NCBI GenBank assembly: GCA_963708515.1
Contig: CAVPSX010000005.1
Location: 2,958-66,957, forward strand
Reading direction: 5' to 3'
From: an uncultured delta proteobacterium
Lineage (GTDB): Bacteria; Desulfobacterota; Syntrophia; Syntrophales; Fen-1087
Length of the DNA stretch: 64,000 nt
In this document: piece by piece, positions 1,262-44,774 of the stretch
Layout of the letters: each line of letters starts with the position of its first letter
Position numbering within the stretch: the first letter of the stretch is position 1
Position numbers and translations under genes: made by a program
Notes under the pieces: generated by a model
Seen by the model: the letters and a program-made list of their open reading frames with translations, nothing else
Databases searched by the model: none
What the model was told of the DNA's origin: nothing

Positions 1262-1288
1262 GTATTATGAATTCAATATTCGTAACAC
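1262..1288. promoter_or_regulatory. Predicted NikR operator upstream of the outer-membrane barrel gene
   Basis: GTATTAT-N13-GTAACAC is an inverted repeat. It matches the GTGTTAC-N13-GTAACAC type of NikR box reported for non-enterobacterial lineages. A second copy with identical spacing lies at 1738-1764. Confidence 0.55.
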
Positions 1289-1308
1289 ATGCGAATAAAA
1301 AAATACGT

Positions 1309-1725: not shown

Positions 1726-1737
1726 CGTCAGTTCACC

Positions 1738-1764
1738 GTATTACGTTTTTCGTTTTCATAACAC
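1738..1764. promoter_or_regulatory. Predicted NikR operator immediately upstream of nikR (autoregulation)
   Basis: GTATTAC-N13-ATAACAC sits 13 nt upstream of the nikR start codon. Its architecture matches the site at 1262-1288. Confidence 0.5.
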
Positions 1765-1789
1765 AAATAAATATTCTGTCAAGATCTAT

Positions 1790-2359
1790 TCAGACCTTCT
1801 CTCTGAAGCGTGCGACGATATTTTGCCTGTGATTGCAATAAATGAACAGGGCCGTGGCGACGGCGCCGCATGTTGCCGCGGCGCGGTAATCGCAGGCGAT
1901 AATGGTTCCGCCTGCAAGAACGGCGATCATGAAAAAAGAGGCGATGAAAGGGATACGGACGATGCCATAGACCACCACCCAGACGAGGGCGGACAGGGCT
2001 GCGGCCAAGGGGGAAATGAGGATCGTAAACCCCAGGTAGCCCGCCACGCCTCTGCCGCCGCGAAACTGATGAAAGCAGGGGAAGCGGTTGCCGAAGACGA
2101 GGGCCAGGCCCGCCCACGTTACCCATTCCGCTTCCATGACCTGAAGCGCCGTCCAGGCTACGAGGAGGGCACGCCCCAGATCAAGAATGAGGACGAAAGC
2201 GGCCCAGAGCCATCCGGCCTGTCGATAGACATTGGTGACGCCGGCATTGCCGCTGAGTTGCTGTCTCGGATCGCCTTTGTCCAGCCAGTGAAACAGTAGG
2301 ATGGAAAAATTGACGGAACCCGCGAGATAGGCCGCGGCCAGCATGAAGGCTGTCCTCAT
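1790..2359 (-). CDS. plsY: Glycerol-3-phosphate acyltransferase PlsY
   Basis: 189 aa polytopic membrane protein. It carries AAYLAGSVNFSILL and SGNAGVTNVYR (the GSGNxGATNxxR-type motif). Its start overlaps the upstream stop (ATGA). Confidence 0.8.
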   Translation of the reverse strand: MRTAFMLAAAYLAGSVNFSILLFHWLDKGDPRQQLSGNAGVTNVYRQAGWLWAAFVLILDLGRALLVAWTALQVMEAEWVTWAGLALVFGNRFPCFHQFRGGRGVAGYLGFTILISPLAAALSALVWVVVYGIVRIPFIASFFMIAVLAGGTIIACDYRAAATCGAVATALFIYCNHRQNIVARFREKV

Positions 2360-3912
2360 TCTTCCGTTCCCTTCTTCACCATCGTAAAAAGATGGTCATC
2401 AACCGTGTCGTGAAAGGCCCGATACAGGACCCCGTCAACGATTAGCCGGCTTTCGAAGCAGCCTATTGCCTGAACCCGTACAGACGTCCAGGAGGCGGCA
2501 AGGGGCCAATTCATCATCTTGGCTATTCCCTCCTTGATGGACCAGACACGCATGGATGCTTCGATGTCGCCCAGTGACGATGCCGCCGTTAAAGCCTGTT
2601 CTTCCTTCCCCATATAGATGCGCTTGGCCTTCAGAACCCTTGCGGATATCTGTTCCACATCCACACCGATGGCCTCGTCATCCGCCACGGCAATCGCATA
2701 GCGCCGATCATGGGAGAGGGAACAGAAAGCGGGGGAGTCGCTGCCGGGGACGGGACAGCAGGGATGCGTTCCGTCGGGCATGATCGTATGGATGGCGGAG
2801 GCCGGCGTCACCCTGTCCCCATGTGCCAGTTTCCGCGCCAGGTGTTTCAGGGCGAGGCGGCCCGCCAGATAGCTTTTCTGTCTGGCCTTCCCCATACGTT
2901 CAAAGCGCTCCTGTTCATGTGGGGAAAGGGCCCGGGCTGCGAAAGGCGCCATGGCATTCAACTCAATGATGGTCGCAGCCCGGATGTGCTCCCGAATATT
3001 GGCGAGAGGGGTCGCCTCTTTGTTCAGTACCCAGCCGGGGGGCTTGAGACGGCCCTTGGAGACATCCTTCATGGTGACGCCGCAAAGCTGTTCGCACAGG
3101 TCTCCTTCGCCATTGAAAATCCAGATATCGAAGCGCAGGAAGTCCTCCGTGACGGACAAGGGAAGAATGGCGCCGTGGTAAAGTTCTCCCGGAACGGTGG
3201 GATGAACGACCCTTCTCTCCTCAAACCCCACCGGGAAGGCCACCCGGTTATGAAACCTCTGCCCCCAGGCGCACGCAGCGTGCAGGGCCCCGTCCAAAGG
3301 GAAGGGGGACCCCAGGGGTTCCGTAGATACCGGGTGTTTCGCTGCAAAGACGCGGCACAGCGCGCCGTTTTCATTAAGAAAGACGGTATCCGTAACGTTT
3401 TGGAAGGCCGGTCCAAACGGTACGAGGTCGCGGTATAAGGCTTGGGCGGGGATTCCGAAGACCATGCCGTCCAGGGCGGCGGCCAGATCCACGGGAAGCG
3501 CCGGGCCTGAATCTTCCGGTTCGGCAAAATCGACGACGGTATGGACCTTTGATCTTTTGATCCCAGCGCCCGGCATCACGCCGGTGGTCATCAATCGTGA
3601 GGTCATGCGGCCGTTTTCATAGACATCCAGTTCATGCCAGGCGTCGATGACATCTGTTTGCCTGTCGATCACCAAAAAATGGTCGAACGAGGCCCGGCGC
3701 ATGCAACGCACCGGCGTTCCCGGTCGATAAGCCTGCAATGAACCGGCCAGATGTTGCAGGATGACTGCTGCCGGCAATACGACTTTTCCGGAAAAATGAT
3801 GATCTCTGAGGTAGGGTCGAACGGGCATGGCCAGGGGGAGACGGATATGCGCCTCTGCCAGTGACCGTGTCGCGGGGGGAGGCAGCGGCGCGGGAAGGAC
3901 AGATTTTTTCAT
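2356..3912 (-). CDS. Fusion protein: PKS-type double-hotdog dehydratase domain plus 4'-phosphopantetheinyl transferase domain
   Basis: The N-terminal part has LRDHHFSGKVVLPAAV (HxxxGxxxxP), LYRDLVPFGPAFQ and PLDGALHA. The C-terminal part has SLSHDRRYAIAV, IGVDVE and WSIKEGIAK, which are PPTase motifs. Total length 518 aa. Confidence 0.7.
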   Translation of the reverse strand: MKKSVLPAPLPPPATRSLAEAHIRLPLAMPVRPYLRDHHFSGKVVLPAAVILQHLAGSLQAYRPGTPVRCMRRASFDHFLVIDRQTDVIDAWHELDVYENGRMTSRLMTTGVMPGAGIKRSKVHTVVDFAEPEDSGPALPVDLAAALDGMVFGIPAQALYRDLVPFGPAFQNVTDTVFLNENGALCRVFAAKHPVSTEPLGSPFPLDGALHAACAWGQRFHNRVAFPVGFEERRVVHPTVPGELYHGAILPLSVTEDFLRFDIWIFNGEGDLCEQLCGVTMKDVSKGRLKPPGWVLNKEATPLANIREHIRAATIIELNAMAPFAARALSPHEQERFERMGKARQKSYLAGRLALKHLARKLAHGDRVTPASAIHTIMPDGTHPCCPVPGSDSPAFCSLSHDRRYAIAVADDEAIGVDVEQISARVLKAKRIYMGKEEQALTAASSLGDIEASMRVWSIKEGIAKMMNWPLAASWTSVRVQAIGCFESRLIVDGVLYRAFHDTVDDHLFTMVKKGTEE

Positions 3913-4673
3913 GGCGTCATCTTCCGTTCCAGGAGCGCCCTGGCCTCTTCCATGAGCATGGCCGTGGACTGGTTATCCCGGTCATAGGCGGGCGTGAGTC
4001 GCCCGGCCAGTTCCACATCGATGGTACAGGCGTCGCGCGTATTGAATAACCAGCCGTCCGGGGGATAGAGTTTCTGAGTGTTCCGGATGGACACGACCAC
4101 GATAGGCGCCCGGCAGAGGCGGGCGATGCGGAAGGCCCCCTTGTCGAATGGCCCGATGCGGCCGTCACGGCTTCTTGTTCCCTCGGGGAAAATAAAGAGG
4201 TTGCCGCCGCTTGCCAGATAATCCGCCATGCTTTTAATCTGGGTCATCATGGCGTCCGAAAATCCGCCGTTCGTGATTGATGGCATGTACCCGGAGACCT
4301 TCAATATCCAACCGAATACAGGATAGCCGAAATAATCTTTTTTGACGATGGTCTTCTGTTTGTCGTAGAGCGACACGAACAGGATGGGATCGAGAAAGGA
4401 GCGGTGGTTGGCGATGATGATGGATGAGCGAAGAGAGGCGACCTCTTCCGCTATGTGCCATCGCACACCGGGAATCAGCATGCGCACCAGGGAAAAAAAA
4501 TACCGATGGAGGCGATGGTTCAACCGCTGGAACGCCCCTTCTTTGCTTTTTGAGAAATAATAGGCGTACAGGTAAAAGGGTGAAAAAAACACGAGGTAGC
4601 CCATGATGTACCAGATCCAGAGGGCGAGCGTGATAATGACATCAATGATGCGTGTTCTTGACAGAGGAAGCAT
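3909..4673 (-). CDS. 1-acyl-sn-glycerol-3-phosphate acyltransferase family (PlsC-like), membrane anchored
   Basis: It has N-terminal TM helices, NHRSFLDP (HX4D) and FPEGTRSRDG motifs. It overlaps the upstream gene by 4 nt. Confidence 0.8.
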   Translation of the reverse strand: MLPLSRTRIIDVIITLALWIWYIMGYLVFFSPFYLYAYYFSKSKEGAFQRLNHRLHRYFFSLVRMLIPGVRWHIAEEVASLRSSIIIANHRSFLDPILFVSLYDKQKTIVKKDYFGYPVFGWILKVSGYMPSITNGGFSDAMMTQIKSMADYLASGGNLFIFPEGTRSRDGRIGPFDKGAFRIARLCRAPIVVVSIRNTQKLYPPDGWLFNTRDACTIDVELAGRLTPAYDRDNQSTAMLMEEARALLERKMTP

Positions 4674-4683
4674 GAGAACGCCG

Positions 4684-5925
4684 TTAATGGTCCTTCCATT
4701 TTTTAATGATGACGCTTGTGTTCACGCCGCCGAAGGCAAAATTCTGGATGGCCGCAATCCCGATCGGATAGTCTCTCACGGCCTGGACATGGCGGATCAT
4801 GGCGCACCGCTCATCCACCTCTTCGAGATTCAGGGTCGGTACGATATAGCCTTCGGCCATGAGATAGGCTGCAATGATGGTTTCAATGGCCCCGCACGAT
4901 CCCATGGTATGCCCCATATAGCTCTTGAGGCCGACAACCGCAGGACGGTTTCCGTAAACGGCATGGATGGCCTGAGCCTCGATGACATCGCCCATCTTGG
5001 TTCCCGTCGCGTGGGCGCTGATGAAATCCACGTCGTCGGCAGGGATCCGGGCATCCTGCAGAGCGAGCCGCATGGTCTCGGCGATGCCGTTGATATTGGG
5101 CAGGATCAGATCTCCTCCGTTGTTGTTGCAGGAAAAGCCGATGACCTCCGCCAGAATGGTCGCGCCGCGTTTTCGGGCCCGTTCGTATTCCTCGAGGAGG
5201 ACCGCACCGGCCCCTTCGCCCACAACGAGACCGTCCCGCTTTTCGTCGAAGGGGCGCGGGGTCAGATGGGGCGTCTCGTTAAAAGCGGTGGAACAGGCGA
5301 GGAGATTGTCGAAGACGGCCACGGTGGTCGTGTCATATTCGTCGGCCCCGCCGCAGATCATGGCATCCTGCATGCCGTATTTGACCATTTCATAGCCGTA
5401 GCCGATGGATTGGCTGCTGGTCGTGCATGCTGTGGAAGAGGAGATGACGCGGCCGGTGATGCCGAACATCTTGGTGATGTTCACGGCGGTGGTGTGGACC
5501 ATGGATTTCAGATAATCCACCGCCCCGATGGATGAAAACCCGTTCCGGGAGCCGCTGAAGAAGGTCTTGTAAATCCCCCGCTGCACCGTGGGGCTCCCGT
5601 GCGTCGAACCGAAGGCGACACCCAGGCGCCCTGAAGTGATAAAGGCCTCATCCAGGCCGGCGGCCTCGAGAACCTCCTTCGCCACCTGACAGGCATAATA
5701 GGCTACCGGTCCCATGGTCTTCCGATGCTGACGCTTGAAATCGTAGGTAATGGGATAATCAACCGTCCCGAAGACTTTGGAGTGAATGTAGCGGGTCAAC
5801 ACATCGTCCTCCTTGAGGACCTTGACCCCGGAGACCCCATGGCTCAAGTTATGGAGGATCTCTTCTCTGGAGCGGCCGATGGGCGTGATGGCCGAACAAG
5901 CAGTAATGACGACTCTTCTTCCCAT
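4684..5925 (-). CDS. Beta-ketoacyl-ACP synthase (KAS I/II-like)
   Basis: 413 aa. The active-site Cys lies in SSSTACTTSS. The two His lie in SAHATGTKMGD and YMGHTMGSCG. The C-terminus is NFAFGGVNTS. Confidence 0.85.
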   Translation of the reverse strand: MGRRVVITACSAITPIGRSREEILHNLSHGVSGVKVLKEDDVLTRYIHSKVFGTVDYPITYDFKRQHRKTMGPVAYYACQVAKEVLEAAGLDEAFITSGRLGVAFGSTHGSPTVQRGIYKTFFSGSRNGFSSIGAVDYLKSMVHTTAVNITKMFGITGRVISSSTACTTSSQSIGYGYEMVKYGMQDAMICGGADEYDTTTVAVFDNLLACSTAFNETPHLTPRPFDEKRDGLVVGEGAGAVLLEEYERARKRGATILAEVIGFSCNNNGGDLILPNINGIAETMRLALQDARIPADDVDFISAHATGTKMGDVIEAQAIHAVYGNRPAVVGLKSYMGHTMGSCGAIETIIAAYLMAEGYIVPTLNLEEVDERCAMIRHVQAVRDYPIGIAAIQNFAFGGVNTSVIIKKWKDH

Positions 5926-5979
5926 AAAAAACTCCTGTTGCCTCCCAGGGGCCTTTTGACAACTGACGCCTGATTTGCC

Positions 5980-6240
5980 CTATGCTGTTTGCCTTGCTAT
6001 CGCCAGGGCCTGGATATAATCGATCACATGATTGAGGGTCCGGATGTCCATGGCACGCTTCTTTTCCTCCTGGCTGAGTTCAGAATCGAGAAGGTTTTCG
6101 ATTTCCAGCAGCAATTCGATGGCGTCGATACTGTCAAACTCATGAACTTTCCGGAGATCGTCATCCATCCCGGGATTTTCGATCTCAAACTCCTTCCGGA
6201 AAAACTCAAGGATTCTTGCTTCAATCTCAGCTCGCGTCAT
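5980..6240 (-). CDS. Acyl carrier protein
   Basis: 86 aa from ATG 6240 with AGGAG 8 nt upstream; the longer ORF-track start would overlap the thioesterase gene. The phosphopantetheine attachment motif is HEFDSIDAIELLLEIE. Confidence 0.75.
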   Translation of the reverse strand: MTRAEIEARILEFFRKEFEIENPGMDDDLRKVHEFDSIDAIELLLEIENLLDSELSQEEKKRAMDIRTLNHVIDYIQALAIARQTA

Positions 6241-6268
6241 CTCAGGTCTCCTGTACAAATCATCGTCT

Positions 6269-6748
6269 TCAGACGGGAAATGCCTTCCAAAGCCGGACCG
6301 TCTTGAGATCGACAGCCGTGGGTTTCCCTGACGCATTCAGGGCGCAGTGCTTTGTAAATCCCCTGCAGACGAGAGCTCCTGATTCAGCATGGGTGATTAC
6401 ATAATCGAAGCGGATCTTCACCCGTTCCAGTTCCGCGGGCCGGGTATGGATCCACATAGGATCATCATAATAGAGAGGCTCATAGAATTGAATTCCCAGG
6501 TCGATAATGGGATAGACAAACCCACTCGCCTCTATCTCCTTGTAAGGAAAGGCCGTGTCCCGCATGAGGGAGGCGCGGCCGTATTCAAAATATCGCAGAT
6601 AATTGGCATGATAGACGACGGCCGACCGATCCGTATCGGCATACAGGATCCTGTTTGCACAGCGGTGCCAGCAAAGGCCGTCCTCCATGTCCCGTATGTA
6701 GCGCACGTCGTTTCCCAGGGCTTCCGGTCGGAAAGGTCGCGGCTTCAT
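6269..6748 (-). CDS. Hotdog-fold acyl-CoA/acyl-ACP thioesterase (YbgC/4HBT family)
   Basis: 159 aa with ILYADTDRSAVVYHANYLRYFEYGR, the typical 4HBT catalytic Asp region. It overlaps the upstream ketosynthase gene by 4 nt. Confidence 0.75.
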   Translation of the reverse strand: MKPRPFRPEALGNDVRYIRDMEDGLCWHRCANRILYADTDRSAVVYHANYLRYFEYGRASLMRDTAFPYKEIEASGFVYPIIDLGIQFYEPLYYDDPMWIHTRPAELERVKIRFDYVITHAESGALVCRGFTKHCALNASGKPTAVDLKTVRLWKAFPV

Positions 6749-8013
6749 GCTACCCCCCTGAACAGGATGCAGCAGTTCGTGCCCCCGAATCCGAAGGCGT
6801 TCGCCAGGGTGATTTCATGATGAACCTTCCGGGCCTCATGGGGGACAAAGTCCAGGCCGTCAAATGCCGGGTCGTGAAGGTAGTTGATGGTGGGCAGCAT
6901 GATCCCCCGGCGCATCCCCTCGATGGCCAGGGCATTCTCGATGGCGGCGGCGGCGCCCAGTGTATGGCCGATCTGCGACTTATTCGACGAGATGGGGATA
7001 TGATGCAGCGTCTCGCCGAAGACGGCCCGAAGGCACTCCACTTCCGTCGCGTCTCCCTTGGGTGTTGAGGTGCCGTGGGCGTTGATGTACTGGACATCGC
7101 GGGGAGTCAGTCCCGCATCGTCAATGGTTTCCCGGATGGCCCGGATGATCGTTGCCGGATTGGGCCGGGTGAAATGATGGGCGTCGGAGGTCCAGCCCAC
7201 ACCCATGACCTCCGCCCGTGCCTGAAGGCCGTATCTTGCGATGGCTTCGTCGGCCGCCAGGACAATCACACCGCCTCCCTCGGAAAAGACAAAGCCCCGC
7301 CGATCCCTGCTGAACGGCCGGGAGGCCTGGGCCGGGTCCGAATAGGCCCGGTCGCGCGCGTTAACCTTGATGGTGGCGTTCATGTTTGCAAAACCGTGAA
7401 TAATTTCCGGCATAATGGGCATATCCACGCCTCCCGCCAAGACAAAGTCGCAGTCGCCGTCCCGGATCATCCGGGCGCCGATGCCGACGGCGTGATTTCC
7501 CGAAGCGCAGGCCCCCTGGGGCGAAAAGATGGGGCCGGTAAACCCCATGAGCATCCCCGCCTTGCCTGAGGGCAGGTTGGCGCAGAGATTGGGCAAGAGA
7601 TACGGACTGATCTTCAGGGGCTCCTCGTCGCGCATGTTCCCCGCAGCGGTCCGGAAGGCATCCGTTCCGTTGATGGCGGAACCGATCAGGCAGGCTGTCC
7701 GCGGGCCGGTATCCTGATCCATTTGAAGCCCCGCGTTCTCCAGGGCTTCCTTCACGACGGCCATGGTGAGAATCACGAAAGAGGCGTTCCAGTTGTAAAC
7801 CTCCTTTTCGTTGGAAAAATCGAAGGCCAGGGGATTCCAGTCTGGAATCTCGCCGACGATGTTGCAGAGGGATTCCACATGGCAGCGGGTTACCTTGCGG
7901 AATCCAGCCTCGCCCCGGATGGCCCGCTCCCAGGTTTGGGGAAAGGTTTTCCCCAGCGGCGTCGCCGCGCCGTACCCAATGACAAAAACCTTTCTATTCT
8001 TCGGAGCCTTCAT
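6745..8013 (-). CDS. Beta-ketoacyl synthase (FabF/PKS KS-like)
   Basis: 422 aa. It has Cys in QGACASGNHA, His in NAHGTSTPKGD and His in SQIGHTLGAAA, so the Cys-His-His triad is intact. Confidence 0.85.
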   Translation of the reverse strand: MKAPKNRKVFVIGYGAATPLGKTFPQTWERAIRGEAGFRKVTRCHVESLCNIVGEIPDWNPLAFDFSNEKEVYNWNASFVILTMAVVKEALENAGLQMDQDTGPRTACLIGSAINGTDAFRTAAGNMRDEEPLKISPYLLPNLCANLPSGKAGMLMGFTGPIFSPQGACASGNHAVGIGARMIRDGDCDFVLAGGVDMPIMPEIIHGFANMNATIKVNARDRAYSDPAQASRPFSRDRRGFVFSEGGGVIVLAADEAIARYGLQARAEVMGVGWTSDAHHFTRPNPATIIRAIRETIDDAGLTPRDVQYINAHGTSTPKGDATEVECLRAVFGETLHHIPISSNKSQIGHTLGAAAAIENALAIEGMRRGIMLPTINYLHDPAFDGLDFVPHEARKVHHEITLANAFGFGGTNCCILFRGVA

Positions 8014-8041
8014 TTTTTATGATCTCTTGCACACGATTGAA

Positions 8042-9292
8042 TCATTCGATCCGGCGCAGCACGATGCAGGCATTGCACCCGCCGAATCCGAAAGCATTTT
8101 TTAAAACAAACTCCTGGGCCTGCGATCTGGCCCCTTCGGCCACGCAATCCAGAACGATATCCGGATCGGGCGTATAATTGATGGTCGGCAGGAGCGTCTC
8201 ATGCATCATGCCCTCCATGGCGAGGATGATCTCGATGGCGCTTGCCGCCCCCATGGCATGACCCAGTTGGGACTTGTTGGCCGACACGGGGGGGATGCAA
8301 CGCCCGAAAACAGCCTCCAGGGCTTCGGCCTCGATCTTGTCTCCGATCCTGGTCGATGTTCCGTGGGCATTGACGGCGTCTATTTCTCGCGGCGTCAGGC
8401 CCGCATGGGCGATGCTCTGCGCCATGCACAGCGTGACGGTTTCCAGGCGCGGTGCGACAAAGTGATGGGCGTCAGAGGTCATGGCCCATCCGGCCATTTC
8501 AAGCCTGGGCGTCAGTCCGTGGACCCTGGCAAAGGCCTTGCTCGCTATGACGACGGCGCCTGCCCCTTCCGATACGACAAATCCCCGTCGGTTTACCGAG
8601 AAAGGGCGGCTTGCCGTCTGCGGCAGTTCCTGCGCCCGCCCGTCCTTAGGGCGGTAGGCGCCGTTCATGGTCGCAAAACCTCCAAGTATGGTTTCCACCA
8701 GGGAGAAATCCACGGCCCCGCAAATGACGACATCGGCCATGCCCAGTTCAATGAACATGGCGCCGACGATCATGGACGTTACCCCGGTGGCGCAGGCCGT
8801 AATGGTGGCGGTAATGGGGCCGGTCGCCCCGGTCATCATGGAGACTTTGCCCCCCACCATGTTGATGCAGGAATTCGGATTGGTGAACGGATGGGGCAGT
8901 TTCCCCTCCGCCACCCAGAGCCGGTCGGCCCGGATGACCGCGTCCTGGCCACCGACGGCTGAACTGAAGGTAATGGCCGTTCTCGGCGCGAGGTCCGGGG
9001 TAATGTCGATCCCGCTTTTATCCAGCGCCCGGTGGACCACCAGCAGGGCATGTTTGAAAATCGGCGACGTCCACAGGGCCATATCACGGGTGGCGAGAAA
9101 GGGATAGGCCCTGGCGTCTATCGGGGGCGTCTCTCCGGCAATCCGTACAGGGAAATGATCCCGCAGGGGGAAGCGGGTCAGGGGACCGATGCCGCTGTCG
9201 CCCCTGACCGCCCGCTTCCATTGTGTTTCCATATCCACACCCAGGGGCGAGACAGCGTCATAGCCCAATATGACCGGTCGTTGTCTGTCCAT
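8042..9292 (-). CDS. Beta-ketoacyl synthase (second of adjacent pair; catalytic Cys retained, so not a CLF)
   Basis: 416 aa with Cys in ATITACATGVTS, then NAHGTSTRIGD and SQLGHAMGAAS. Confidence 0.85.
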   Translation of the reverse strand: MDRQRPVILGYDAVSPLGVDMETQWKRAVRGDSGIGPLTRFPLRDHFPVRIAGETPPIDARAYPFLATRDMALWTSPIFKHALLVVHRALDKSGIDITPDLAPRTAITFSSAVGGQDAVIRADRLWVAEGKLPHPFTNPNSCINMVGGKVSMMTGATGPITATITACATGVTSMIVGAMFIELGMADVVICGAVDFSLVETILGGFATMNGAYRPKDGRAQELPQTASRPFSVNRRGFVVSEGAGAVVIASKAFARVHGLTPRLEMAGWAMTSDAHHFVAPRLETVTLCMAQSIAHAGLTPREIDAVNAHGTSTRIGDKIEAEALEAVFGRCIPPVSANKSQLGHAMGAASAIEIILAMEGMMHETLLPTINYTPDPDIVLDCVAEGARSQAQEFVLKNAFGFGGCNACIVLRRIE

Positions 9293-9297
9293 GAACG

Positions 9298-10299
9298 TTA
9301 CCAGGGGATGAACCGGTAGAGTTTGGCGAACATCTCATAGACCTCGATCCAGTTTTGAAGATCTCTGGCCGAGGCCAGGTGGTCCCTTTTGTTGACCATG
9401 ACCCAGCTCATATGGGCCGCGCCGTCCTTGCAGGTGGAGCAATCCCGCGTGGCGGAGGTGCAGCACCGGTGCCGGGTTTGCAGATCCGAGGCCCACCTGA
9501 CAAAGCGGATGAGCCTTTTGGGTTGCGGATTCCGGTCATCCATCTGCTCCGTTACGGACGGGCACTCGCTCCATCCGAAGGAACGCCCCAGCATCTTCCC
9601 CGTGGTAATGATCTCATGATAGTACTTGCAGGAAATGACCGTCCGGGGATAACGCTCCAGCAGGTCATCCATTTCGGCGCGCACGTCTTTGAGCTTGTCC
9701 TTTGTCCAGAAAAATCCATCGACCTGTTCATCATTCGTCAGGAGCTGGAGATGGACCTTGAGGCCTACATCTTCGATCTTCCTGATGATGCGTTCTGTCC
9801 TTCCCACCTGTTTCGGCGTAATGGTGTAAAGGTAATAGGCGTCTGGGTCTCCCGCATAATTCCGGCTGGAAACGGCAAAGGTGTCTTTTCCCCGGAGCAC
9901 TTTTTCATCTTCTTCGTCGCCCCACAGGGAGATGCCAACCATCATGTCGGGAAAGCGGTCCCGGGGGACCCGTATCTGCCCGTTGGTTGCACAATACGTC
10001 GGCATCGTGCGGTAGAACGCCTCGACACGGTCCAGATAAAGCGTCGGTTCTCCGCCGATAAGGATGGCCAGGTTCACGCCCCTGTCCTTTTCCTTTTGAA
10101 CGAAGGCCTGCCATTTCTCTATATCCGTTTCCTCGGCGGCGGCCTCATGTTCGCCGGAGGAAAAGAAAAAACAGCCCTTGCAACGTAAATTGCAGCGGTT
10201 GGTTATATCATAGATGGAGCTGCGGATATTGAGGGCCGCGATTTTCCGGTAACGCTCATGCCACGCCGCATCCAGTAAGGAACTGACTGTTTTCATCAC
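9298..10299 (-). CDS. Radical SAM protein with C-terminal Cys-rich (SPASM/twitch-like) region
   Basis: It has IYDITNRCNLRCKGCFFF (CX3CX2C) and a C-terminal RCCTSATRDCSTCKD. It is a paralogue of the next gene. Confidence 0.8.
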   Translation of the reverse strand: MMKTVSSLLDAAWHERYRKIAALNIRSSIYDITNRCNLRCKGCFFFSSGEHEAAAEETDIEKWQAFVQKEKDRGVNLAILIGGEPTLYLDRVEAFYRTMPTYCATNGQIRVPRDRFPDMMVGISLWGDEEDEKVLRGKDTFAVSSRNYAGDPDAYYLYTITPKQVGRTERIIRKIEDVGLKVHLQLLTNDEQVDGFFWTKDKLKDVRAEMDDLLERYPRTVISCKYYHEIITTGKMLGRSFGWSECPSVTEQMDDRNPQPKRLIRFVRWASDLQTRHRCCTSATRDCSTCKDGAAHMSWVMVNKRDHLASARDLQNWIEVYEMFAKLYRFIPW

Positions 10300-10368
10300 G
10301 CTTCTCTCTTTTCAATAAAACAGGCTCACTGCCGCAAAGACATCGAAAACCGATCTTCCCGTACCTTT

Positions 10369-11475
10369 TCAGGAGGATAGCCGGGGAGGGCTTACCAACT
10401 TGCGGCAGAGATTGTCACTTTTATTGTACCCTTTGACCCAGACAGTCAGATACGTATCAACATAGTCGAGCCATGATCGGAACGTGTCGGGATCCGTCGC
10501 ATGGCGATGGAGCCGGGCCGTCACGACAGCGCTTCCCGAGGCGTAATGGCGACAATCGTCACAATCCGTATCCGGGACGCAGCAGGCCGCTTCCCTATCC
10601 CAGGAGAGATCGGCCCGGTACTGCCGGAAAGACCGTCCAAGGCCGATATCCTCGGAGCGGTTCATACGGGGATAGGTGCAGCCATAGAGGGCATGGAGCC
10701 CCTGCCGATGGGTGTGGGCCACCGCGCTGTAGTGAGAAAAAATGACGTTCCCGGGATAACGCGCCATCAGGTCCATCATGACCTGGCGGGTCCGGTCCAG
10801 GGACGCCTCATCATGCCGGAGGGGGCCGGCATAACCCAGGGGCGCTGAAAACACGTTGAAGGTGATCCTCCCGTCGTCGCGAACGATGGATTCCACAACC
10901 CCATCCGCTTCGTCGAGATTGTCGCGGGTGAACGTATAAACGAAGACCGCCCGGGGATCAGCGTGGTAATTGCCGATCTGTTTGAGAAGCAGATTTTTTG
11001 CCTTTCTTATCCGCAGACTGGTTTCATCGTTCCCCCAGACGGAAATATGAATCTGATAACCGACAGATTCGGGTATGCGCTTCAAACCGTTCGTGGCGAT
11101 ACACCCTAAGGGTATTTCGCCATAGCAGACTTTCAGGATGTCCGGAACCAGAGACGGCTCGGCGCCGGCCAGCACCGCATAGGTGATGCCCCGTTTTCTC
11201 TCCTCATGCATGAGCCTTTGCCACGCCCCGGGGTCGTCGTTTTCCGGGGCAAACTGCTTGTGCCCCTCATAATAATAACAGCCGTCGCAGCGGATGTTGC
11301 AGCGGGTCGTCATATCGTATGTCGATTCCCGGAGAAAGAAAAACTTCCGCACCTTCTCCCAGCGCTCGCGCACCGCCGGGTCGGCCAATAGCTCGGAGAA
11401 TTTCCATTTTTTCTTTATGTTATCTTCTCGGGATAACGATAATGCGTTGGTATGATCCATGGAGCGCTCAATCAT
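10369..11475 (-). CDS. Radical SAM protein with C-terminal Cys-rich region (paralogue of 9298-10299)
   Basis: It has TYDMTTRCNIRCDGCYYY and a C-terminal ACCVPDTDCDDCRHY. Conserved blocks shared with the neighbour include GxEPxL, ATNG and ISxWG. Confidence 0.8.
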   Translation of the reverse strand: MIERSMDHTNALSLSREDNIKKKWKFSELLADPAVRERWEKVRKFFFLRESTYDMTTRCNIRCDGCYYYEGHKQFAPENDDPGAWQRLMHEERKRGITYAVLAGAEPSLVPDILKVCYGEIPLGCIATNGLKRIPESVGYQIHISVWGNDETSLRIRKAKNLLLKQIGNYHADPRAVFVYTFTRDNLDEADGVVESIVRDDGRITFNVFSAPLGYAGPLRHDEASLDRTRQVMMDLMARYPGNVIFSHYSAVAHTHRQGLHALYGCTYPRMNRSEDIGLGRSFRQYRADLSWDREAACCVPDTDCDDCRHYASGSAVVTARLHRHATDPDTFRSWLDYVDTYLTVWVKGYNKSDNLCRKLVSPPRLSS

Positions 11476-11484
11476 TCGGTCATT

Positions 11485-12168
11485 TCAGACCTGGGCCAGT
11501 TTCATCCGGATATAGTCGGCAATCTTGCGAATACTGCCGAGTTTTGGATAATCGTCTTCATCGATGGTGATGCCATATTCATCCTGCAGAACGAGAACCA
11601 CCGTCGCCAGATCCATGCTGTCAACGCCTAACTCATCGACCAGATCAAGATCGGGATTGAACGTCTCCTTCGTAATCTCCTCGAGCTTCAGCTCGAAGAT
11701 GATGATTTCGGTAATGCGAAGGAGCAGGGCTTCTTGATCAATGTTTTCCATACGTTCATCATTCTCCTTGCCTGTGAAATAAGTCTTCAGTTCCATTACG
11801 CCGGTGCATACCGTATGTCCTTTTACGGAAACCTCGAACCGATAGTCATGGCCATGATCAGCGATGGCGGAAGACACGGATATGCTTAACGTCTCACCCG
11901 GCCTGACGGGTCTTCTGAAACGAACCTTACGGATCCCTTTTATTGCAATCCGTCCGCCTTTTTCGGAGCCCTGTCGCCTGAAGGCTTCGGCCACCATGGA
12001 CAATATGGCAATACCCGGAAGGATCGGTTCCCCTGGAAAGTGGCCGGAGAACCACAACGAGGCGACATCCATGCGCGCCTCCGCCAAGGGGACAGGCTTA
12101 AACCTGTCCCCTGTTCCCGAAGACGCTCCCGGATAGGACAGGATATGCCATGGTTCCTGCATTGTCAC
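11485..12168 (-). CDS. FabZ/FabA-like hotdog dehydratase fused to an acyl carrier protein domain
   Basis: The N-terminal part has FSGHFPGEPILPGIAILSMVAEAF, a FabZ HFPxxPxxPG motif. The C-terminal part has DELGVDSMDLATVVLVLQDEYGI, an ACP Ser motif. Confidence 0.75.
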   Translation of the reverse strand: MTMQEPWHILSYPGASSGTGDRFKPVPLAEARMDVASLWFSGHFPGEPILPGIAILSMVAEAFRRQGSEKGGRIAIKGIRKVRFRRPVRPGETLSISVSSAIADHGHDYRFEVSVKGHTVCTGVMELKTYFTGKENDERMENIDQEALLLRITEIIIFELKLEEITKETFNPDLDLVDELGVDSMDLATVVLVLQDEYGITIDEDDYPKLGSIRKIADYIRMKLAQV

Positions 12169-12290
12169 CGCAGCTCATTTTTCGACTATTTTACGACTTC
12201 GCAACATTTGCCCATGACGAAATTTGCTTACCTATCATTTATCAAACCGCAGATCAACATTTTTTATGTACAGGCAAGTATTCATTATCC

Positions 12291-13112
12291 TTAGCAATCA
12301 ATGGAAACCCGGGTCATAATGGGTTTCCCGATGAGTTCGGCCAGGGGTCTGACCTGCAACCCTTTATGTTTCAGACCGGAAAGGATGTTGTCGACTTCGT
12401 GCAGCCAGCGGTCGGCATCTGTATCCGGCCGCGGCCGGACATCATGCAGAAGAATAATATCATCGGGTCTCACCTTCTTCAGGATCTTTCCTGCCAACCC
12501 ATGGATACGTCTATTGCCGAAATCATTGGCCCGGCATGAAAATGTCAGGCAGAAAAGCCCTTTAACTTTCAACATATCCGCCAGTTTCGGGCTGGTAATC
12601 CCCACGGGAGGACGAAAAGCGACGGGTGATATGCCAAAGCGATGCAATACGGCTTGTGTGGCGTCGATCTCCCGGGCCAGCGTTTGAGAGGGGCGAAGCA
12701 TCAGAAAGGGATCATGTCGGTAAGAATGATTTCCGATATCATGGCCCTGTGCGAGAATCTCCCCAATGAGGTCTCCATTTTTTTCAGCGTTGACGCCGGT
12801 GACAAAAAAAGCCGCCTGCACGGCATGCCGCTTCAACAAATGAAGCAGCGGACCGGTTGTAACCGGGTCCGGACCGTCATCGAAGGTGACGGCGACCGCC
12901 GGCCCGCCCGCATTTCCCCGGCTGACGATGGGGAGAAAGAAACCCCAGCGGGGAAAGAATGGCGCTGCCAGGCAAAGGAACAGAAAAACGGAAAACGGCG
13001 CCGCTGCCCATTCGATTTTAACGAAAGCCATGATCGGGGCGAGCATAAAGGCGGCCAGGCCGGTGATCATGGCCGGGGAAGCACGTCCTGTATCAGCGCC
13101 ATGACGGTTCAT
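12291..13112 (-). CDS. Polysaccharide deacetylase (NodB homology domain) with N-terminal TM segments
   Basis: It has VAVTFDDGPDP and IGNHSYRHDP NodB motifs. The preferred start is ATG 13112, which overlaps the stop of the upstream gene (ATGA). The ORF-track start is 13130. Confidence 0.75.
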   Translation of the reverse strand: MNRHGADTGRASPAMITGLAAFMLAPIMAFVKIEWAAAPFSVFLFLCLAAPFFPRWGFFLPIVSRGNAGGPAVAVTFDDGPDPVTTGPLLHLLKRHAVQAAFFVTGVNAEKNGDLIGEILAQGHDIGNHSYRHDPFLMLRPSQTLAREIDATQAVLHRFGISPVAFRPPVGITSPKLADMLKVKGLFCLTFSCRANDFGNRRIHGLAGKILKKVRPDDIILLHDVRPRPDTDADRWLHEVDNILSGLKHKGLQVRPLAELIGKPIMTRVSIDC

Positions 13113-14458
13113 CGGATCAGAAGCTCCCACAGGGGCCCGGTATGTCCCCGGGCATAGAGCCTGGACATCATCCGGTACATCCGGGGCGGGCCGGAACCAA
13201 CCACCCAGTTTTCGCGATCTGCGGCGTGGTCTTTTATGCGTTTCAGGACGGTCTCGCGATGGAGGGCCACAGACCAGTAAAATGTCGGTTCCATGAGATC
13301 GTTCCCGTCTTTGATCTGCCTTTCCTGCAAGGCCAGAATATAGAGAGGCGTGTGGGGATAAATCCTTATCCCGGCAAAAACGAAAAAAACCGTTTTGTCC
13401 AATCTCTCGGTCCGAAACAGGGTCTCCTCCAGTGTTTCCTGGTTTTCACCCGGACCGCCGATCATGAGATAATGGGCGACATGAAGGCCGGCGTCACCGG
13501 CCAGCCGGTGTGATGTAAAGACATCTTCTGCAAGGAACGGTTTGCCATAAGCCCTGAGCGTGGGGTCGGCAAGGGATTCCGTGCCGAACTCCACATGCGT
13601 CAACCCGGCGTCGGCGAGGATGCGATAGTAGTCCGGCGGTGGGGCCGTGGGTGTAAAAAAGCCGCCCCAGGGGATGGAAAGCCCCGCTTTCTTGAAAGCC
13701 AGAGCTACGTCCAGGCTATGTTCATAATGGCTGTTGAACGTTGAGTCGGTGATGTACAGATACTTTGCGCCGGCCTCCTGAAGCATTCTGGCCGTCCGCC
13801 CCACTTCCGCCGGTTCGGCAAAACGCAGGCGCCTCCCCTCAATATGGGGGTAGGTGCAGTAAATGCAATGGAAGGGGCATCCCCTTTTCGTTTGCAGGTT
13901 GAGCATGCCGCCCCTCTTCAGATAATAAGACCGGTAGGAATGATCGGGAATGCCGCCGCGCCCGAAGGATGCAGGCAGAGGCTCCGGGTAGACAGCCGGA
14001 CCTTTCCGGGCGATAACGCCGGGGAGTTCCGAAACGGATTCCTGCCGTTCCAGGGCCTGAAGAAGCAGGGGGAGCCTTTCCCCCTCGCCGATAATGCCGA
14101 AATCGGCCTCCAGCCTGGCCATGAACTCTCCGGGCAGGATCGTGAAGCCGCTTCCTCCCAACACGATCACGCCCTGTGAGTGCCGGCGGATAGTATCGAT
14201 CAAGGCGCTGATTTCACCGATAAAGGATTCCGTGCGGGTATCGTCGGTATTGTCGATGTTCCGGATGGAGATGCCGATCACATCGGGGCGCAAATCGGCA
14301 AGAACGGCAGCGATGCCCGCGCTTTCTTTCATCTCGTTCATATCGATGCAGCTCACCTGATGGGGCGGTGAGATGGCGTTCACGACATAATCCAGACCGA
14401 GAGGGTAGGTCGGATAGGGCTGCTGCACGGTATTGGTGGAGACGAGAAGGATCTTCAT
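13109..14458 (-). CDS. B12-binding-domain radical SAM protein (class B type)
   Basis: 449 aa. The N-terminal MKILLVSTNT...YPLGLDYV matches a cobalamin-binding Rossmann-like region. The radical-SAM cluster motif is TKRGCPFHCIYCTYP. Confidence 0.8.
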   Translation of the reverse strand: MKILLVSTNTVQQPYPTYPLGLDYVVNAISPPHQVSCIDMNEMKESAGIAAVLADLRPDVIGISIRNIDNTDDTRTESFIGEISALIDTIRRHSQGVIVLGGSGFTILPGEFMARLEADFGIIGEGERLPLLLQALERQESVSELPGVIARKGPAVYPEPLPASFGRGGIPDHSYRSYYLKRGGMLNLQTKRGCPFHCIYCTYPHIEGRRLRFAEPAEVGRTARMLQEAGAKYLYITDSTFNSHYEHSLDVALAFKKAGLSIPWGGFFTPTAPPPDYYRILADAGLTHVEFGTESLADPTLRAYGKPFLAEDVFTSHRLAGDAGLHVAHYLMIGGPGENQETLEETLFRTERLDKTVFFVFAGIRIYPHTPLYILALQERQIKDGNDLMEPTFYWSVALHRETVLKRIKDHAADRENWVVGSGPPRMYRMMSRLYARGHTGPLWELLIR

Positions 14459-15936
14459 TGGAATTCCCCGGCAACGTCACGGGCAAATTGCTCGTGACCG
14501 ATGATCTGCATGACCGCCTGAAACGATCCCAGGACCGTCCCCATGATGCCGGGGCACAGCCTGTTCTGTCCTGCCAGGTACAGACCGTTGATGGATGTCC
14601 GATTCAAAGACGCCGCCTTCATCAGTTGTCCTGCTGAGCGAAGAATGCCGTAAGGAGACCCGTCGGGGCTCGCCACCCAATCCCGGATCGTCAGGGGTGT
14701 AAAGCTGTCCAGTATCTTCCCGTCCGTAAGCGGACCGAAGATCTTGGATGCCTCAGAGATGAAATGACGGGCCTTTTTCTCCTTTTTCGCTCCATAGTCG
14801 CTGCCGCGCCGTCCGGAGCGCGTACCGGACCATGGCCGCCACCCTTCAACGCTGCTCGTGGTGATAATGGACAGGAGGTTGACCCCCGCCTGCCCGCTGG
14901 GTCGCAATTGATGAAAAACCCCCCGGGTCAGGGAGCCATCTGCTTCCGGATAGAGACGATAGATATTATAGGGCAAGGCAGTGTGCATATCGGCGTTCAC
15001 GGCCAGATGGATGCCGAAAAGACCTTTGGTGTCGATGAGCTGTGCAACCCGCTGAACGTAGGATGGCCGAAGCGCCCCGGCCGGCACCAAGGCGGCCGCG
15101 ACCCTGGGATGGATGGCCGCGATGATGGTCCACGCCTCCAGAATGCGGCCGGACTTCAACACAACGCCCTGCACCTGTCCGGATTCCACCCGGATACTCT
15201 CCACGCCGTCTCCCGCGATGACATCGCCTTCCAGGGATTTGAAGCTCGCTAAAAAGGCGTCCGCCATCCGGGTGCTGCTGCAGGCCAGTCGCCAGGATGA
15301 CATCAGGTAAGAGGCCAGGGTCATGTAATAATAAATGGCGGGGCATTCCTGGAGGGGCACCCCGATCAAAGTTGCCGGGACAGCCAGGACATTGCGGAGT
15401 CTTTGGGAACAACCGAATCGCAGGAGGCGCTGCCCCATGGACTCGAAGTTTAAGTAAGACAAGGCCGCCGTCGTCGGAGACAGGACCATGTCCAAGGAGG
15501 ACAGCGTTCGGGATATCTCCCGGAGATCGGCCATGATCCCCTTGATTTGGACTTGTTCTTCAGGAAAGGCTTGATGGAGGCTTATCTCAAAGGCATCCAT
15601 GCCGGACGGAAGATCGAAGACAAAGTCGTCGTATACATAGCGATCGATAATGCCTTCCATTCCCATGCGCTCAAGGGGGATCAGCGGGGTGACGCCAAGG
15701 TAATCCCATAAACGGCGCAGGGGCTGACCCTCATCGAGGGCTCCCATATAATGGACGCCGGTGGGACATTCGATGCCGGACCGCGCATAGCTGCGCATCA
15801 ACCCTCCGGGCAGGGGGTTTTTTTCCACCACCGTGACCCGGCAATGAAGTTTTGACAGAATAATGCCGGCGGCGAGACCTCCGATGCCGGAACCGATGAT
15901 CAGGACACGTCCGGGGGCGAGGTTTTGTTTCGTCAT
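14455..15936 (-). CDS. FAD-dependent oxidoreductase, phytoene desaturase (CrtI)-like
   Basis: 493 aa. The N-terminal dinucleotide fold is RVLIIGSGIGGLAAGIILSKLHCRVTVVEKNPLPGG. The C-terminal part has NGLYLAGQ. Confidence 0.75.
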   Translation of the reverse strand: MTKQNLAPGRVLIIGSGIGGLAAGIILSKLHCRVTVVEKNPLPGGLMRSYARSGIECPTGVHYMGALDEGQPLRRLWDYLGVTPLIPLERMGMEGIIDRYVYDDFVFDLPSGMDAFEISLHQAFPEEQVQIKGIMADLREISRTLSSLDMVLSPTTAALSYLNFESMGQRLLRFGCSQRLRNVLAVPATLIGVPLQECPAIYYYMTLASYLMSSWRLACSSTRMADAFLASFKSLEGDVIAGDGVESIRVESGQVQGVVLKSGRILEAWTIIAAIHPRVAAALVPAGALRPSYVQRVAQLIDTKGLFGIHLAVNADMHTALPYNIYRLYPEADGSLTRGVFHQLRPSGQAGVNLLSIITTSSVEGWRPWSGTRSGRRGSDYGAKKEKKARHFISEASKIFGPLTDGKILDSFTPLTIRDWVASPDGSPYGILRSAGQLMKAASLNRTSINGLYLAGQNRLCPGIMGTVLGSFQAVMQIIGHEQFARDVAGEFQ

Positions 15937-15959
15937 GGTATGGGGGCGCTGATTATCGC

Positions 15960-16235
15960 TCAGGCGGCTTTGTTCGTTGACTTGTGGTCATAGACATACG
16001 CCGCCAGGGCGCAGACGGAGGCAAAGACTTTGACGCCCAGTTCCTTGCTGTCAATCTCGACACCGTAATCTTTTTCGAGCATCATGACCAGCTCCAGGAC
16101 ATCAATGGAATCCAGCCCCAGATCGCCTCCGATAAGCTGTGCTTCGGCATCGATATCATCTGGCGCCACGTCAATGAGGTTTAAGGTTTCGATAATTTTC
16201 TTTTTCAGTTCAAATATGAGTGAATCCATGCCCAT
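15960..16235 (-). CDS. Acyl carrier protein (first gene of the operon)
   Basis: 91 aa with GDLGLDSIDVLELVMMLEKDYG. Confidence 0.8.
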   Translation of the reverse strand: MGMDSLIFELKKKIIETLNLIDVAPDDIDAEAQLIGGDLGLDSIDVLELVMMLEKDYGVEIDSKELGVKVFASVCALAAYVYDHKSTNKAA

Positions 16236-44742: not shown

Positions 44743-44774
44743 CTCCGCTATCCCTTATAACGATTGGTCTTCCT

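Follow-up and report, generated by a model that had tools for sequence, protein, structure and literature searches.

The subject of this study is an operon on the minus strand of a 64,000-nucleotide stretch of contig CAVPSX010000005.1 (the window), which derives from an uncultured, Syntrophales-like member of the Desulfobacterota. The operon combines genes for acyl carrier proteins (ACP), ketosynthases (KS), dehydratases and acyltransferases with genes for three radical S-adenosylmethionine (rSAM) enzymes. We conclude that it is the Syntrophales version of an orphan "ladderane-type" family of lipid gene clusters of the type II fatty acid synthase/polyketide synthase (FAS/PKS)-like kind, which is marked by the curated protein family TIGR04072. 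Moreover, the operon probably encodes an ACP-based line for a chain-modified, specialised glycerolipid of a strict anaerobe, and its product is most likely not a ladderane.

The original prediction, made from the sequence of the window without database searches, had proposed a private carrier-based acyl-chain pathway with its own phosphopantetheinyl transferase (PPTase), rSAM and flavin tailoring enzymes and glycerolipid-type acyltransferases, and the gene content determined here supports this proposal. It had also assigned both acylation steps of glycerol-3-phosphate to the operon and had named rSAM enzymes that couple lipid tails (Tes, Mss) as a precedent; these two parts of the interpretation were overstated or not supported, for the reasons given below.

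Results

A TIGR04072 enzyme marks the cluster

The cobalamin-binding rSAM protein of the operon (B12-rSAM) passed the model TIGR04072 (rSAM_ladder_B12; "lipid biosynthesis B12-binding/radical SAM protein") with 381.8 bits at a cut-off of 360, and its gene is embedded among genes for private ACPs, a FabZ-type dehydratase and FabF-type ketosynthases. The nearest relatives of B12-rSAM, with 86-94% identity, come from metagenomes and metagenome-assembled genomes (MAGs) labelled Syntrophales, delta proteobacterium or Pseudomonadota, while relatives with 55-70% identity are found in Syntrophus, Smithella, Desulfobacterales and Spirochaetota MAGs. When one genome for each GTDB species was scanned for the pattern, relatives were detected in at least 524 species genomes. 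The nearest relative with a solved structure is TsrM (6wte; 98.5 bits).

The original prediction had likened the operon to the gene sets for which Rattray et al. (2009) considered a role in ladderane synthesis in anammox bacteria and counterparts of which they noted in Deltaproteobacteria. This likeness holds, as TIGR04072 was passed and the gene functions match those of kuste3603-3608, kuste3339-3343, kuste3351 and kuste2802 in Kuenenia stuttgartiensis, which is an anammox organism. Rattray 2009 described synteny between Kuenenia and clusters of Desulfotalea, Geobacter and Pelobacter; in a metagenome study from 2023, antiSMASH predicted "ladderane" biosynthetic gene clusters in MAGs of the Desulfobacterota and other phyla (PMC9902471). 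Because a curated NCBI model exists and such clusters have already been reported in Desulfobacterota MAGs, the cluster is not of a newly seen kind. Related clusters are treated in Rattray 2009, Javidpour 2016, Dietl 2023 and a preprint by Granatino (2026). None of the papers found in our literature search connects a non-anammox cluster with a compound.

The match to rSAM_ladder_B12 and the overlap in gene content with Kuenenia Cluster I (kuste3603-3608), kuste3339-3343, kuste3351 and kuste2802 would also be expected if the operon directed the synthesis of true ladderanes, i.e. concatenated cyclobutanes, outside the anammox bacteria. We regard this as very improbable. The host is Syntrophales-like, ladderanes have been reported from anammox bacteria only, and D. 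psychrophila was found to contain C31:8 and C31:9 hydrocarbons and no ladderanes (Rattray 2009). Moreover, the FabF partner with a dead catalytic triad is absent from the window, in which KS1 and KS2 both keep Cys-His-His.

The cluster is conserved as a unit

The 15 operon proteins (named as in Table 1) were compared by tblastn with the best 80 loci, and the counts given below refer to the 50 loci that extend at least 9.5 kb downstream of the B12-rSAM gene. A colinear core consisting of dehydratase/ACP, rSAM-A, rSAM-B, KS1, KS2 and thioesterase was present in 40 of the 50 loci, and its carriers belong to the Syntrophales, Smithella, Desulfobacterales and Spirochaetota. Thus, related genomes keep these genes together as a unit, as the original prediction required. 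ACP1 was found in 45 loci and NodB in 36; the phytoene-desaturase-superfamily oxidoreductase (PDH) was found in 17 and is absent in the Smithella and Desulfobacterales versions. We conclude that PDH and NodB are accessory genes of the cluster family. The module of ACP3, KS3 and PlsC is lacking in most cluster variants, lying in-line in Syntrophales loci and upstream in some Desulfobacteraceae loci and being absent elsewhere.

The variants differ in size and in gene fusions. In a Spirochaetota MAG, the housekeeping genes for PolA and KARI border a minimal cluster with the order PDH, B12-rSAM, NodB, ACP, ApeI-like dehydratase, ACP, rSAM, rSAM, KS, KS, 4HBT thioesterase, PPTase and PlsY. The tblastn match to the PPTase gene of this cluster covers residues 25-513 of the fusion of dehydratase and PPTase (DH-PPTase) in the window, i.e. 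the two domains are fused in the Spirochaetota locus. In the Smithella-type cluster, which is without PDH, the PKS-type dehydratase (PS-DH) and the PPTase are separate genes. The expanded variant L083 has additional genes for a family 2 glycosyltransferase (GT2), an MMPL-methyltransferase fusion, an LpxL-like acyltransferase, a fused ketosynthase-chain length factor (KS-CLF) and a second B12-rSAM. In this locus, the MMPL-methyltransferase fusion (1033 aa) and the fused KS-CLF (727 aa) lie at 1277-4378 and 6343-8526, between ACP1 and PDH. The GT2, MMPL-methyltransferase, LpxL-like and KS-CLF proteins of L083 had no tblastn match in the 64-kb window. The KS-CLF and the export and glycosyl genes are also missing in the closest relatives of the window (L001-L004), in which ACP3-KS3-PlsC is in-line.

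These data bear on whether housekeeping or duplicated FAS genes have come to lie beside unrelated rSAM genes by chance. KS1 and KS2 are indeed most like FabF; however, all ketosynthases and ACPs as well as PlsY and PlsC scored below the cut-offs of the housekeeping equivalogs, FabD, FabG, FabH, FabI and PlsX are absent from the operon, the genes are translationally coupled, and this gene order is found again in 40 of 50 loci from different phyla. A chance assembly therefore has next to no probability and is effectively refuted by the synteny data.

Organisation of the operon

Pfam and NCBIfam searches matched the claimed domains in all 15 genes that the original prediction had described as co-directional; these open reading frames run in one direction from position 16235 to 1790. 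Its 4-nt ATGA overlaps were found as exact overlaps at five junctions, and the remaining gaps within the 15 genes are at most 122 nt. The start of NodB was revised from GTG 13130 to ATG 13112, where it overlaps the B12-rSAM gene by ATGA. Most likely, NodB starts at 13112 and ACP3 at 6240 rather than 6336; the L083 homolog of ACP3 has 88 aa.

Directly upstream of ACP1 and on the same strand lies a gene for a 116-aa membrane protein. Homologs with 25-89% identity are present in 42 related loci, mostly also directly upstream of ACP1 and on the same strand. Because of this conserved position the operon probably comprises 16 genes, and the transcription unit would extend from 16803 to 1790 on the minus strand.

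Table 1. Genes of the operon in the order of transcription, with positions in the window
Gene product	Position	Strand	Basis of assignment
Small membrane protein, 116 aa	16453..16803	-	Hydrophobic stretch ~37-90; no Pfam match
ACP1	15960..16235	-	PF00550; DSID phosphopantetheine site
PDH, FAD amine-oxidase/phytoene-desaturase-superfamily oxidoreductase	14455..15936	-	PF13450 + PF01593
B12-rSAM, class-B cobalamin-binding radical-SAM protein	13109..14458	-	PF02310 + PF04055; TIGR04072
NodB, membrane-anchored CE4 deacetylase	12291..13112 (revised start)	-	PF01522, 87.7 bits
FabZ/ApeI-like hotdog dehydratase fused to ACP2	11485..12168	-	PF07977, PF22818, PF00550
rSAM-A, radical-SAM paralog A	10369..11475	-	PF04055, 24.5 bits, below its cut-off
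rSAM-B, radical-SAM paralog B, predicted twitch/SPASM-class	9298..10299	-	Cys motifs, AF2 fold
KS1, FabF-like ketosynthase	8042..9292	-	PF00109 + PF02801
KS2, FabF-like ketosynthase	6745..8013	-	Pfam/NCBIfam; 41% identical to KS1
TE, 4HBT/YbgC-FadM thioesterase	6269..6748	-	PF13279 + PF03061
ACP3, 86 aa from revised start	5980..6240	-	PF00550, 20.6 bits (cut-off 20.8); DSID site
KS3, PRK09116-like ketosynthase	4684..5925	-	NF006587, 410.1 (cut-off 470)
PlsC/LPLAT-family acyltransferase	3909..4673	-	PF01553, 79.6 bits
DH-PPTase, PKS-type double-hotdog dehydratase fused to Sfp-type PPTase	2356..3912	-	PF14765, PF01648, PF17837
PlsY-subfamily acyltransferase	1790..2359	-	PF02660, 121.7 bits

As the original prediction had stated, no ketoreductase, enoyl reductase or malonyl transferase domain was detected by Pfam in the operon products, and none was present in three related loci for which gene lists were compiled. 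A promoter and terminator scan gave counts that are not above the expectation from shuffled sequence (11 against 8.4±3.2; 21 against 15.2±4.2) and is therefore uninformative on the operon boundaries. Across the whole 64 kb, no Rfam family was detected at the gathering score and no tRNA was found; the absence of an Rfam match implies that the operon is not preceded by a cobalamin or SAM riboswitch.

Putative enzymes of chain assembly

All three ketosynthases have an intact active site, i.e. the Cys, the His of the HGTST or HATGT motif and the His of the GH.xG motif can be read in the translations, as had been claimed. KS3 shares 25-26% identity with KS1 and KS2. KS1 scored 316.9 bits against TIGR03150, below the cut-off of 493.75. 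The best matches of KS1 and KS2 in the PDB are canonical FabF proteins with 249 and 269 bits, respectively; the two-chain entry 9s5h, which might be the anammox FabF heterodimer, was matched with 148 and 189 bits. PDB searches with the ACP and FabZ sequences had generic ACPs and canonical FabZ as best matches, the PDB molecule names carrying no organism.

ACP1 passed the subfamily model NF006617 (PRK09184) with 75.8 bits at a cut-off of 70. In the FabZ-ACP fusion, the dehydratase has the motif HFPGEPILPG and ACP2 a DSMD site; FabZ and ACP2 are separate genes in L083, L085 and L086. The thioesterase passed TIGR00051 (83.1 bits; cut-off 68.7). In the DH-PPTase fusion, the HxxxGxxxxP motif is present in the PS-DH domain and the motifs GVD and WSIKEGIAK in the PPTase domain, which matched Sfp in the PDB with 21.6 bits.

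Several of these features recall aryl polyenes, and the operon might accordingly be a type II PKS-like line for a conjugated polyene or another pigment-type chain, which would not be a bulk membrane lipid but would be lipid-anchored and exported to the outer membrane, e.g. as a redox or stress protectant. ACP1 passes NF006617/PRK09184, KS3 is closest to NF006587/PRK09116, the dehydratase matches the ApeI-like family PF22818, and paired ACPs, ketosynthases and dehydratases occur together with a 4HBT thioesterase and an acyltransferase and without an enoyl reductase; moreover, the sister locus L083 adds GT2, the MMPL fusion, the LpxL-like acyltransferase and the fused KS-CLF. We nevertheless consider an aryl-polyene-like product unlikely. 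The window lacks an adenylating starter enzyme, a ketoreductase, a methyltransferase, a LolA/MMPL exporter and a CLF, and we know of no aryl-polyene cluster that includes three rSAM enzymes and a PlsY-type enzyme. In addition, the assignment of PRK09184 and PRK09116 to aryl-polyene clusters is one that we presume.

The twitch radical-SAM pair and the flavoprotein

rSAM-A and rSAM-B are 27% identical over 326 aa, and rSAM-B passed no curated rSAM subfamily model of NCBIfam. rSAM-A contains the motif CNIRCDGC and a C-terminal CCx6CxxC cysteine cluster, and in tblastn it is 65-91% identical across the full-length loci. For rSAM-B, identity is 72-96% across the full-length loci and 78-96% among the top 120 database matches; rSAM-B and KS3 are the most conserved proteins of the operon. 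A HMMER scan of 1.84 billion cluster representatives detected 585 relatives of rSAM-B at E<=1e-3 and 36 at E<=1e-30, and the full-length orthologs collapse into essentially one 50%-identity cluster. In distant homologs, no variation is seen at Cys36, Cys40, Cys279 and Cys290, and conservation at Cys43 and Cys287 is 90% or higher; GGE is conserved in the close orthologs. With CxxxCxxC, GGE and the second cysteine cluster conserved, the two enzymes look functional as judged from their motifs. The names of protein-cluster members, surveyed for anammox carriers of the rSAM-A/rSAM-B pair, were those of Bacteroidales, Desulfobacterales, Deltaproteobacteria and Acidobacteriota MAGs only.

An AlphaFold2 (AF2) model of rSAM-B from an alignment that included distant homologs had a pLDDT of 91.8; a model from a shallow alignment of 16 sequences (pLDDT 58) was discarded. 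The best folds for the accepted model were SkfB, anSME, ChlB, SuiB and CteB (TM-score ~0.5), and the fold match to SkfB, anSME, SuiB and PqqE had a probability of 1.0. Thus, the CxxxCxxC core, the C-terminal cysteine motif for auxiliary clusters and the partial TIM barrel of the model assign rSAM-B to a predicted twitch/SPASM class.

The genomic contexts of distant rSAM-B homologs point to their substrates. One homolog adjoins an ACP gene. In locus L088 (3930-11365; Logan SRR31012006), a protein of 724 aa combines a homolog with 32% identity with a TubC-type docking domain and a thioesterase. This fusion directly follows a 1754-aa type I PKS module with dehydratase and methyltransferase domains. 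To our knowledge, such a terminal fusion of thioesterase and rSAM domains is not a known architecture. In locus L091 (5060-9423; JGI 3300034125), a homolog with 38% identity belongs to a small, different cluster that encodes a PaaA/PaaC-like protein, the rSAM protein, an AMP-binding protein like fatty-acyl-AMP ligases and a SnoaL-ACP fusion, with a KAS-III-like gene nearby on the opposite strand; its 90% protein cluster includes proteins from Blastocatellia/Pyrinomonadaceae (Acidobacteriota) MAGs. Two further distant homologs (P0250, P0252) lie on contigs too short for their context to be read. As the L091 context shows, the rSAM-B family recurs with carrier proteins outside the ladderane-type cluster. 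This recurrence is the best available evidence that the rSAM family acts on ACP-tethered acyl or polyketide chains. The conservation of the twitch pair and its carrier-protein contexts appear to be undescribed in the literature consulted.

The original prediction had called PDH CrtI-like, and this description stood at the level of the superfamily and failed at the level of the carotenoid families. The best score against the curated carotenoid models was 79.5 bits at a cut-off of 549.7, the model crtI_fam gave 64.5 (cut-off 238.1), and CrtI itself (4dgk) was matched with 22.6 bits. Judged by these scores, PDH is a member of the CrtI superfamily only and is distant from the carotenoid desaturases CrtI, CrtD and CrtN.

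The co-occurrence of a CrtI-superfamily flavoprotein with rSAM enzymes would be explained if these enzymes inserted double bonds into a growing fatty acid, i.e. by the kind of oxygen-free pathway to polyunsaturated fatty acids or hydrocarbons that Rattray et al. put forward for D. psychrophila and Kuenenia; the C31:8 and C31:9 hydrocarbons of D. psychrophila, which has syntenic clusters, are in line with such a route (Rattray 2009). We consider it improbable. PDH was found in 17 of the 50 loci, and a flavoprotein that most variants lack cannot provide the core chemistry. Moreover, the Pfa and Ole pathways account for C31:9 hydrocarbons. Finally, the PDH homologs of Kuenenia showed no CrtI-like activity, and heterologous expression of Kuenenia genes yielded no new fatty acids (PMC4790861).

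Acyltransferases and the CE4 deacetylase

PlsY scored 88.9 bits against TIGR00023, below the cut-off of 137.2. In an alignment to the Aquifex enzyme (5xj5), the SGNxGxTN motif is kept and Asn takes the place of the motif-3 His (His92 of A. aeolicus PlsY). The PlsY proteins linked to the cluster have the motif GN(S/R)xPCFH..GG(K/R)G, and the Asn is present in 20 of the 20 homologs with a readable motif. This shared Asn motif argues for a PlsY subfamily of its own that accompanies the cluster. PlsC reached the threshold of PF01553 and scored 71.7 bits against TIGR00530, below 102.95; it has the HX4D (NHRSFLD) and FPEGTR motifs and one N-terminal transmembrane segment. The assignment of both glycerol-3-phosphate acylation steps to the operon goes further than these data, as PlsY and PlsC are sub-threshold, PlsX is not encoded, PlsY has Asn for His92 and PlsC belongs to an accessory module.

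NodB contains the motifs TFDDG, NHSYRH, RPPVG and LLHD and an N-terminal hydrophobic stretch. The cluster-specific PlsY with its His-to-Asn replacement, the small membrane protein encoded upstream and the DH-PPTase and FabZ-ACP fusions likewise appear to be undescribed.

Other features of the window

Genes for NikR, a MetA-like channel, GT25, an ACT-domain protein and formate-tetrahydrofolate ligase were considered as operon members and rejected as unrelated according to Pfam. On the plus strand, positions 38127-41781 encode an AMP-binding CoA ligase followed by two HGD-D proteins (D components like those of 2-hydroxyacyl-CoA dehydratase or benzoyl-CoA reductase), which would fit the anaerobic metabolism of aromatic or alicyclic acids in a syntroph. 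Subunits I and II of a cytochrome bd oxidase are encoded at 43732-46085 on the minus strand in an otherwise anaerobe-type context, and the oxidase presumably serves oxygen detoxification. Positions 52703-55788 (minus strand) carry the gene for an 823-aa fusion of an inactive transglutaminase, a 7TM and an ATP-grasp domain, which is translationally coupled to a gene for a putative Zn-protease (PF05618). A DUF3141 protein of 817 aa (PF11339, 750 bits) is encoded at 31501-33954 (plus strand) in a stretch with a low GC content of 0.47-0.50, compared with ~0.55 elsewhere.

Two genes are apparently interrupted. At 26907-27716 (minus strand), an open reading frame for malic enzyme is apparently truncated, its 269 aa comprising the N-terminal domain and a portion of the NAD-binding domain, and at 61164-63912 (plus strand) an MGH1/GH63-like glycoside hydrolase is split across two overlapping open reading frames. 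These breaks may be frameshifts, pseudogenes or assembly errors.

Discussion

We propose the following scheme for the chain-modified glycerolipid. The Sfp-type PPTase domain of DH-PPTase would convert the three private ACPs to their holo forms. KS1 and KS2, which probably act as a pair because both are catalytically competent and always adjacent, would extend a chain on ACP1 or ACP2 by malonyl units, with malonyl loading, ketoreduction and any enoyl reduction being borrowed from the housekeeping enzymes FabD, FabG and FabI. The FabZ/ApeI-like and the PKS-type dehydratases would yield enoyl or polyenoyl intermediates. Tailoring would be oxygen-free and would take place while the chain is still carrier-bound: the twitch pair rSAM-A/rSAM-B may abstract hydrogen and thereby bring about C-C bond formation, rearrangement or oxidation, B12-rSAM may catalyse a C-methylation or another B12-dependent radical step, and the FAD enzyme may, in this sub-lineage only, desaturate, saturate or isomerise the chain. 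The 4HBT thioesterase would release or proof-read the finished acyl group, and the PlsY-subfamily enzyme, in this lineage together with the PlsC-family enzyme and its own ACP3 and KS3, would load the chain onto a glycerol-phosphate-type backbone. Finally, the membrane-anchored CE4 hydrolase may work on the head group or on a lipid-linked intermediate. Mid-chain methyl-branched fatty acids are a sub-possibility for the product of the B12 enzyme; 10Me16:0 occurs in sulfate reducers and in anammox bacteria.

Several points weigh against this scheme. According to the literature search, a product is known for no member of the cluster family, and the heterologous expression of the Kuenenia genes cited above yielded no new fatty acid. 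The domains and motifs were reported by the tools, and we infer each mechanistic step from them; the putative homology of rSAM-A/B to kuste3342/3343 derives from reported gene order. PDH and NodB are dispensable in many variants. The operon encodes neither PlsX nor another acyl-phosphate route, and as PlsY and PlsC score below the curated thresholds, the acceptor may not be glycerol-3-phosphate. Finally, the GT2, the MMPL-methyltransferase fusion and the LpxL-like protein of other variants point to an exported or outer-membrane lipid and not to a bulk phospholipid.

Going beyond the glycerolipid reading as such, we tentatively raise the possibility that the core, i.e. two ACPs, two active ketosynthases, two dehydratases, the near-invariant twitch rSAM heteropair, B12-rSAM and the His-to-Asn PlsY, encodes an evolutionary sister of the ladderane pathway that leads, independently of oxygen, to a structurally new class of glycerolipids with carbocyclic, cross-linked or C-C-coupled fatty-acyl chains, and that the makers of this class are syntrophic and sulfate-reducing anaerobes and some spirochaetes. 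If this were true, solving the pathway in a tractable non-anammox host would reveal the radical chemistry behind the anammox ladderanes. How ladderanes are made has been an unsolved question since 2002, and no genetic system exists for anammox bacteria; in a 2026 review and a 2026 preprint, the ladderane rSAM chemistry is still uncharacterised.

To a specialist, the occurrence of this cluster as such will be unsurprising, as attention was drawn to the family in 2009 and MAG surveys have recorded it; its value is that it points to tractable non-anammox systems. A set of enzymes homologous to those implicated in ladderane synthesis is found here in one compact and self-contained unit that brings its own PPTase and acyltransferases, and the chemistry of the TIGR04072 enzyme and of the twitch pair on ACP-bound chains thereby becomes testable. 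The marker enzyme is widespread in non-anammox anaerobes, and the lipid that abundant syntrophs and sulfate reducers form with this set, likely an unrecognised membrane lipid and a potential biomarker, becomes testable as well.

Comparison with known systems

The candidate ladderane loci of K. stuttgartiensis are kuste3603-3608 (Cluster I), kuste3335-3352 and kuste2802-2805, with gene functions as given in PMC4790861, PMC2649909 and the Granatino 2026 preprint. Both systems have a private ACP, a FabZ-type dehydratase, a phytoene-desaturase-like flavoprotein and a TIGR04072 B12-rSAM, and in both two FabF homologs lie side by side. In kuste3339-3343, genes for FabZ, ACP and FabG are followed by an rSAM pair, and the window likewise has an adjacent pair of rSAM genes other than the B12 type; the likeness of rSAM-A/B to kuste3342/3343 is one of reported gene order only, and orthology to single Kuenenia proteins is seen only through the TIGR04072 model. 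Moreover, by the functions listed for them, the deacetylase-like kuste3351, the ACP synthase kuste2802 and the B12-rSAM kuste2803 correspond to NodB, the PPTase and B12-rSAM of the operon.

The two systems differ in that the genes form a single operon in the window and three loci in Kuenenia. Kuenenia Cluster I consists of ACP, FabZ, FabF, a dead FabF (amxFabFmut), PDH and rSAM genes, whereas KS1 and KS2 both keep Cys-His-His and, therefore, the KS/CLF-like hallmark of the anammox clusters is absent from the window. The operon additionally has the fused DH-PPTase, the fused FabZ-ACP, the PlsY-subfamily gene and the PlsC-family gene, and it is without the FabG, SAM methyltransferases, CoA ligase, glycosyltransferase and MMPL protein of Kuenenia. 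Finally, its host belongs to the non-anammox Desulfobacterota, the closest genomes being Syntrophales/"delta proteobacterium" MAGs with 86-92% identity.

In common with aryl-polyene clusters, the window has a PRK09184-type ACP, a PRK09116-like ketosynthase, an ApeI-like and a second dehydratase, a 4HBT thioesterase and a lysophospholipid-type acyltransferase and no enoyl reductase, and sister variants extend this likeness with GT2, MMPL and LpxL-like genes. It differs from them by the missing starter, ketoreductase, methyltransferase, CLF and exporter functions listed above, some of which are present in L083, and by the addition of three rSAM enzymes, a CE4 hydrolase, a PPTase and PlsY.

With the enzymes GDGT-MAS/Tes and Mss and the HemN-like cyclopropanase Jaw5, the operon would share oxygen-independent radical chemistry on unactivated lipid carbons. 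The precedent of Tes and Mss proved weak in the comparisons made here. GDGT-MAS (7tom) shares the twitch/SPASM-class fold with the rSAM-B model and ranked 24 in the fold search (TMq 0.43), SkfB, anSME and SuiB fitting better. The match to the Tes model NF045702 (29.4 bits; cut-off 450) is confined to the cluster-binding region around CxxxCxxC and reflects no specific relationship. Moreover, the substrates of Tes and Mss are complete membrane lipids; the genomic contexts described here point to ACP-bound ones instead.

Finally, the acyltransferases resemble the canonical PlsX/PlsY/PlsC system by their membership in PF02660 and PF01553 and by the kept SGNxGxTN and HX4D motifs, and they differ from it by sub-threshold scores, the lack of PlsX and the Asn in place of the motif-3 His of PlsY.

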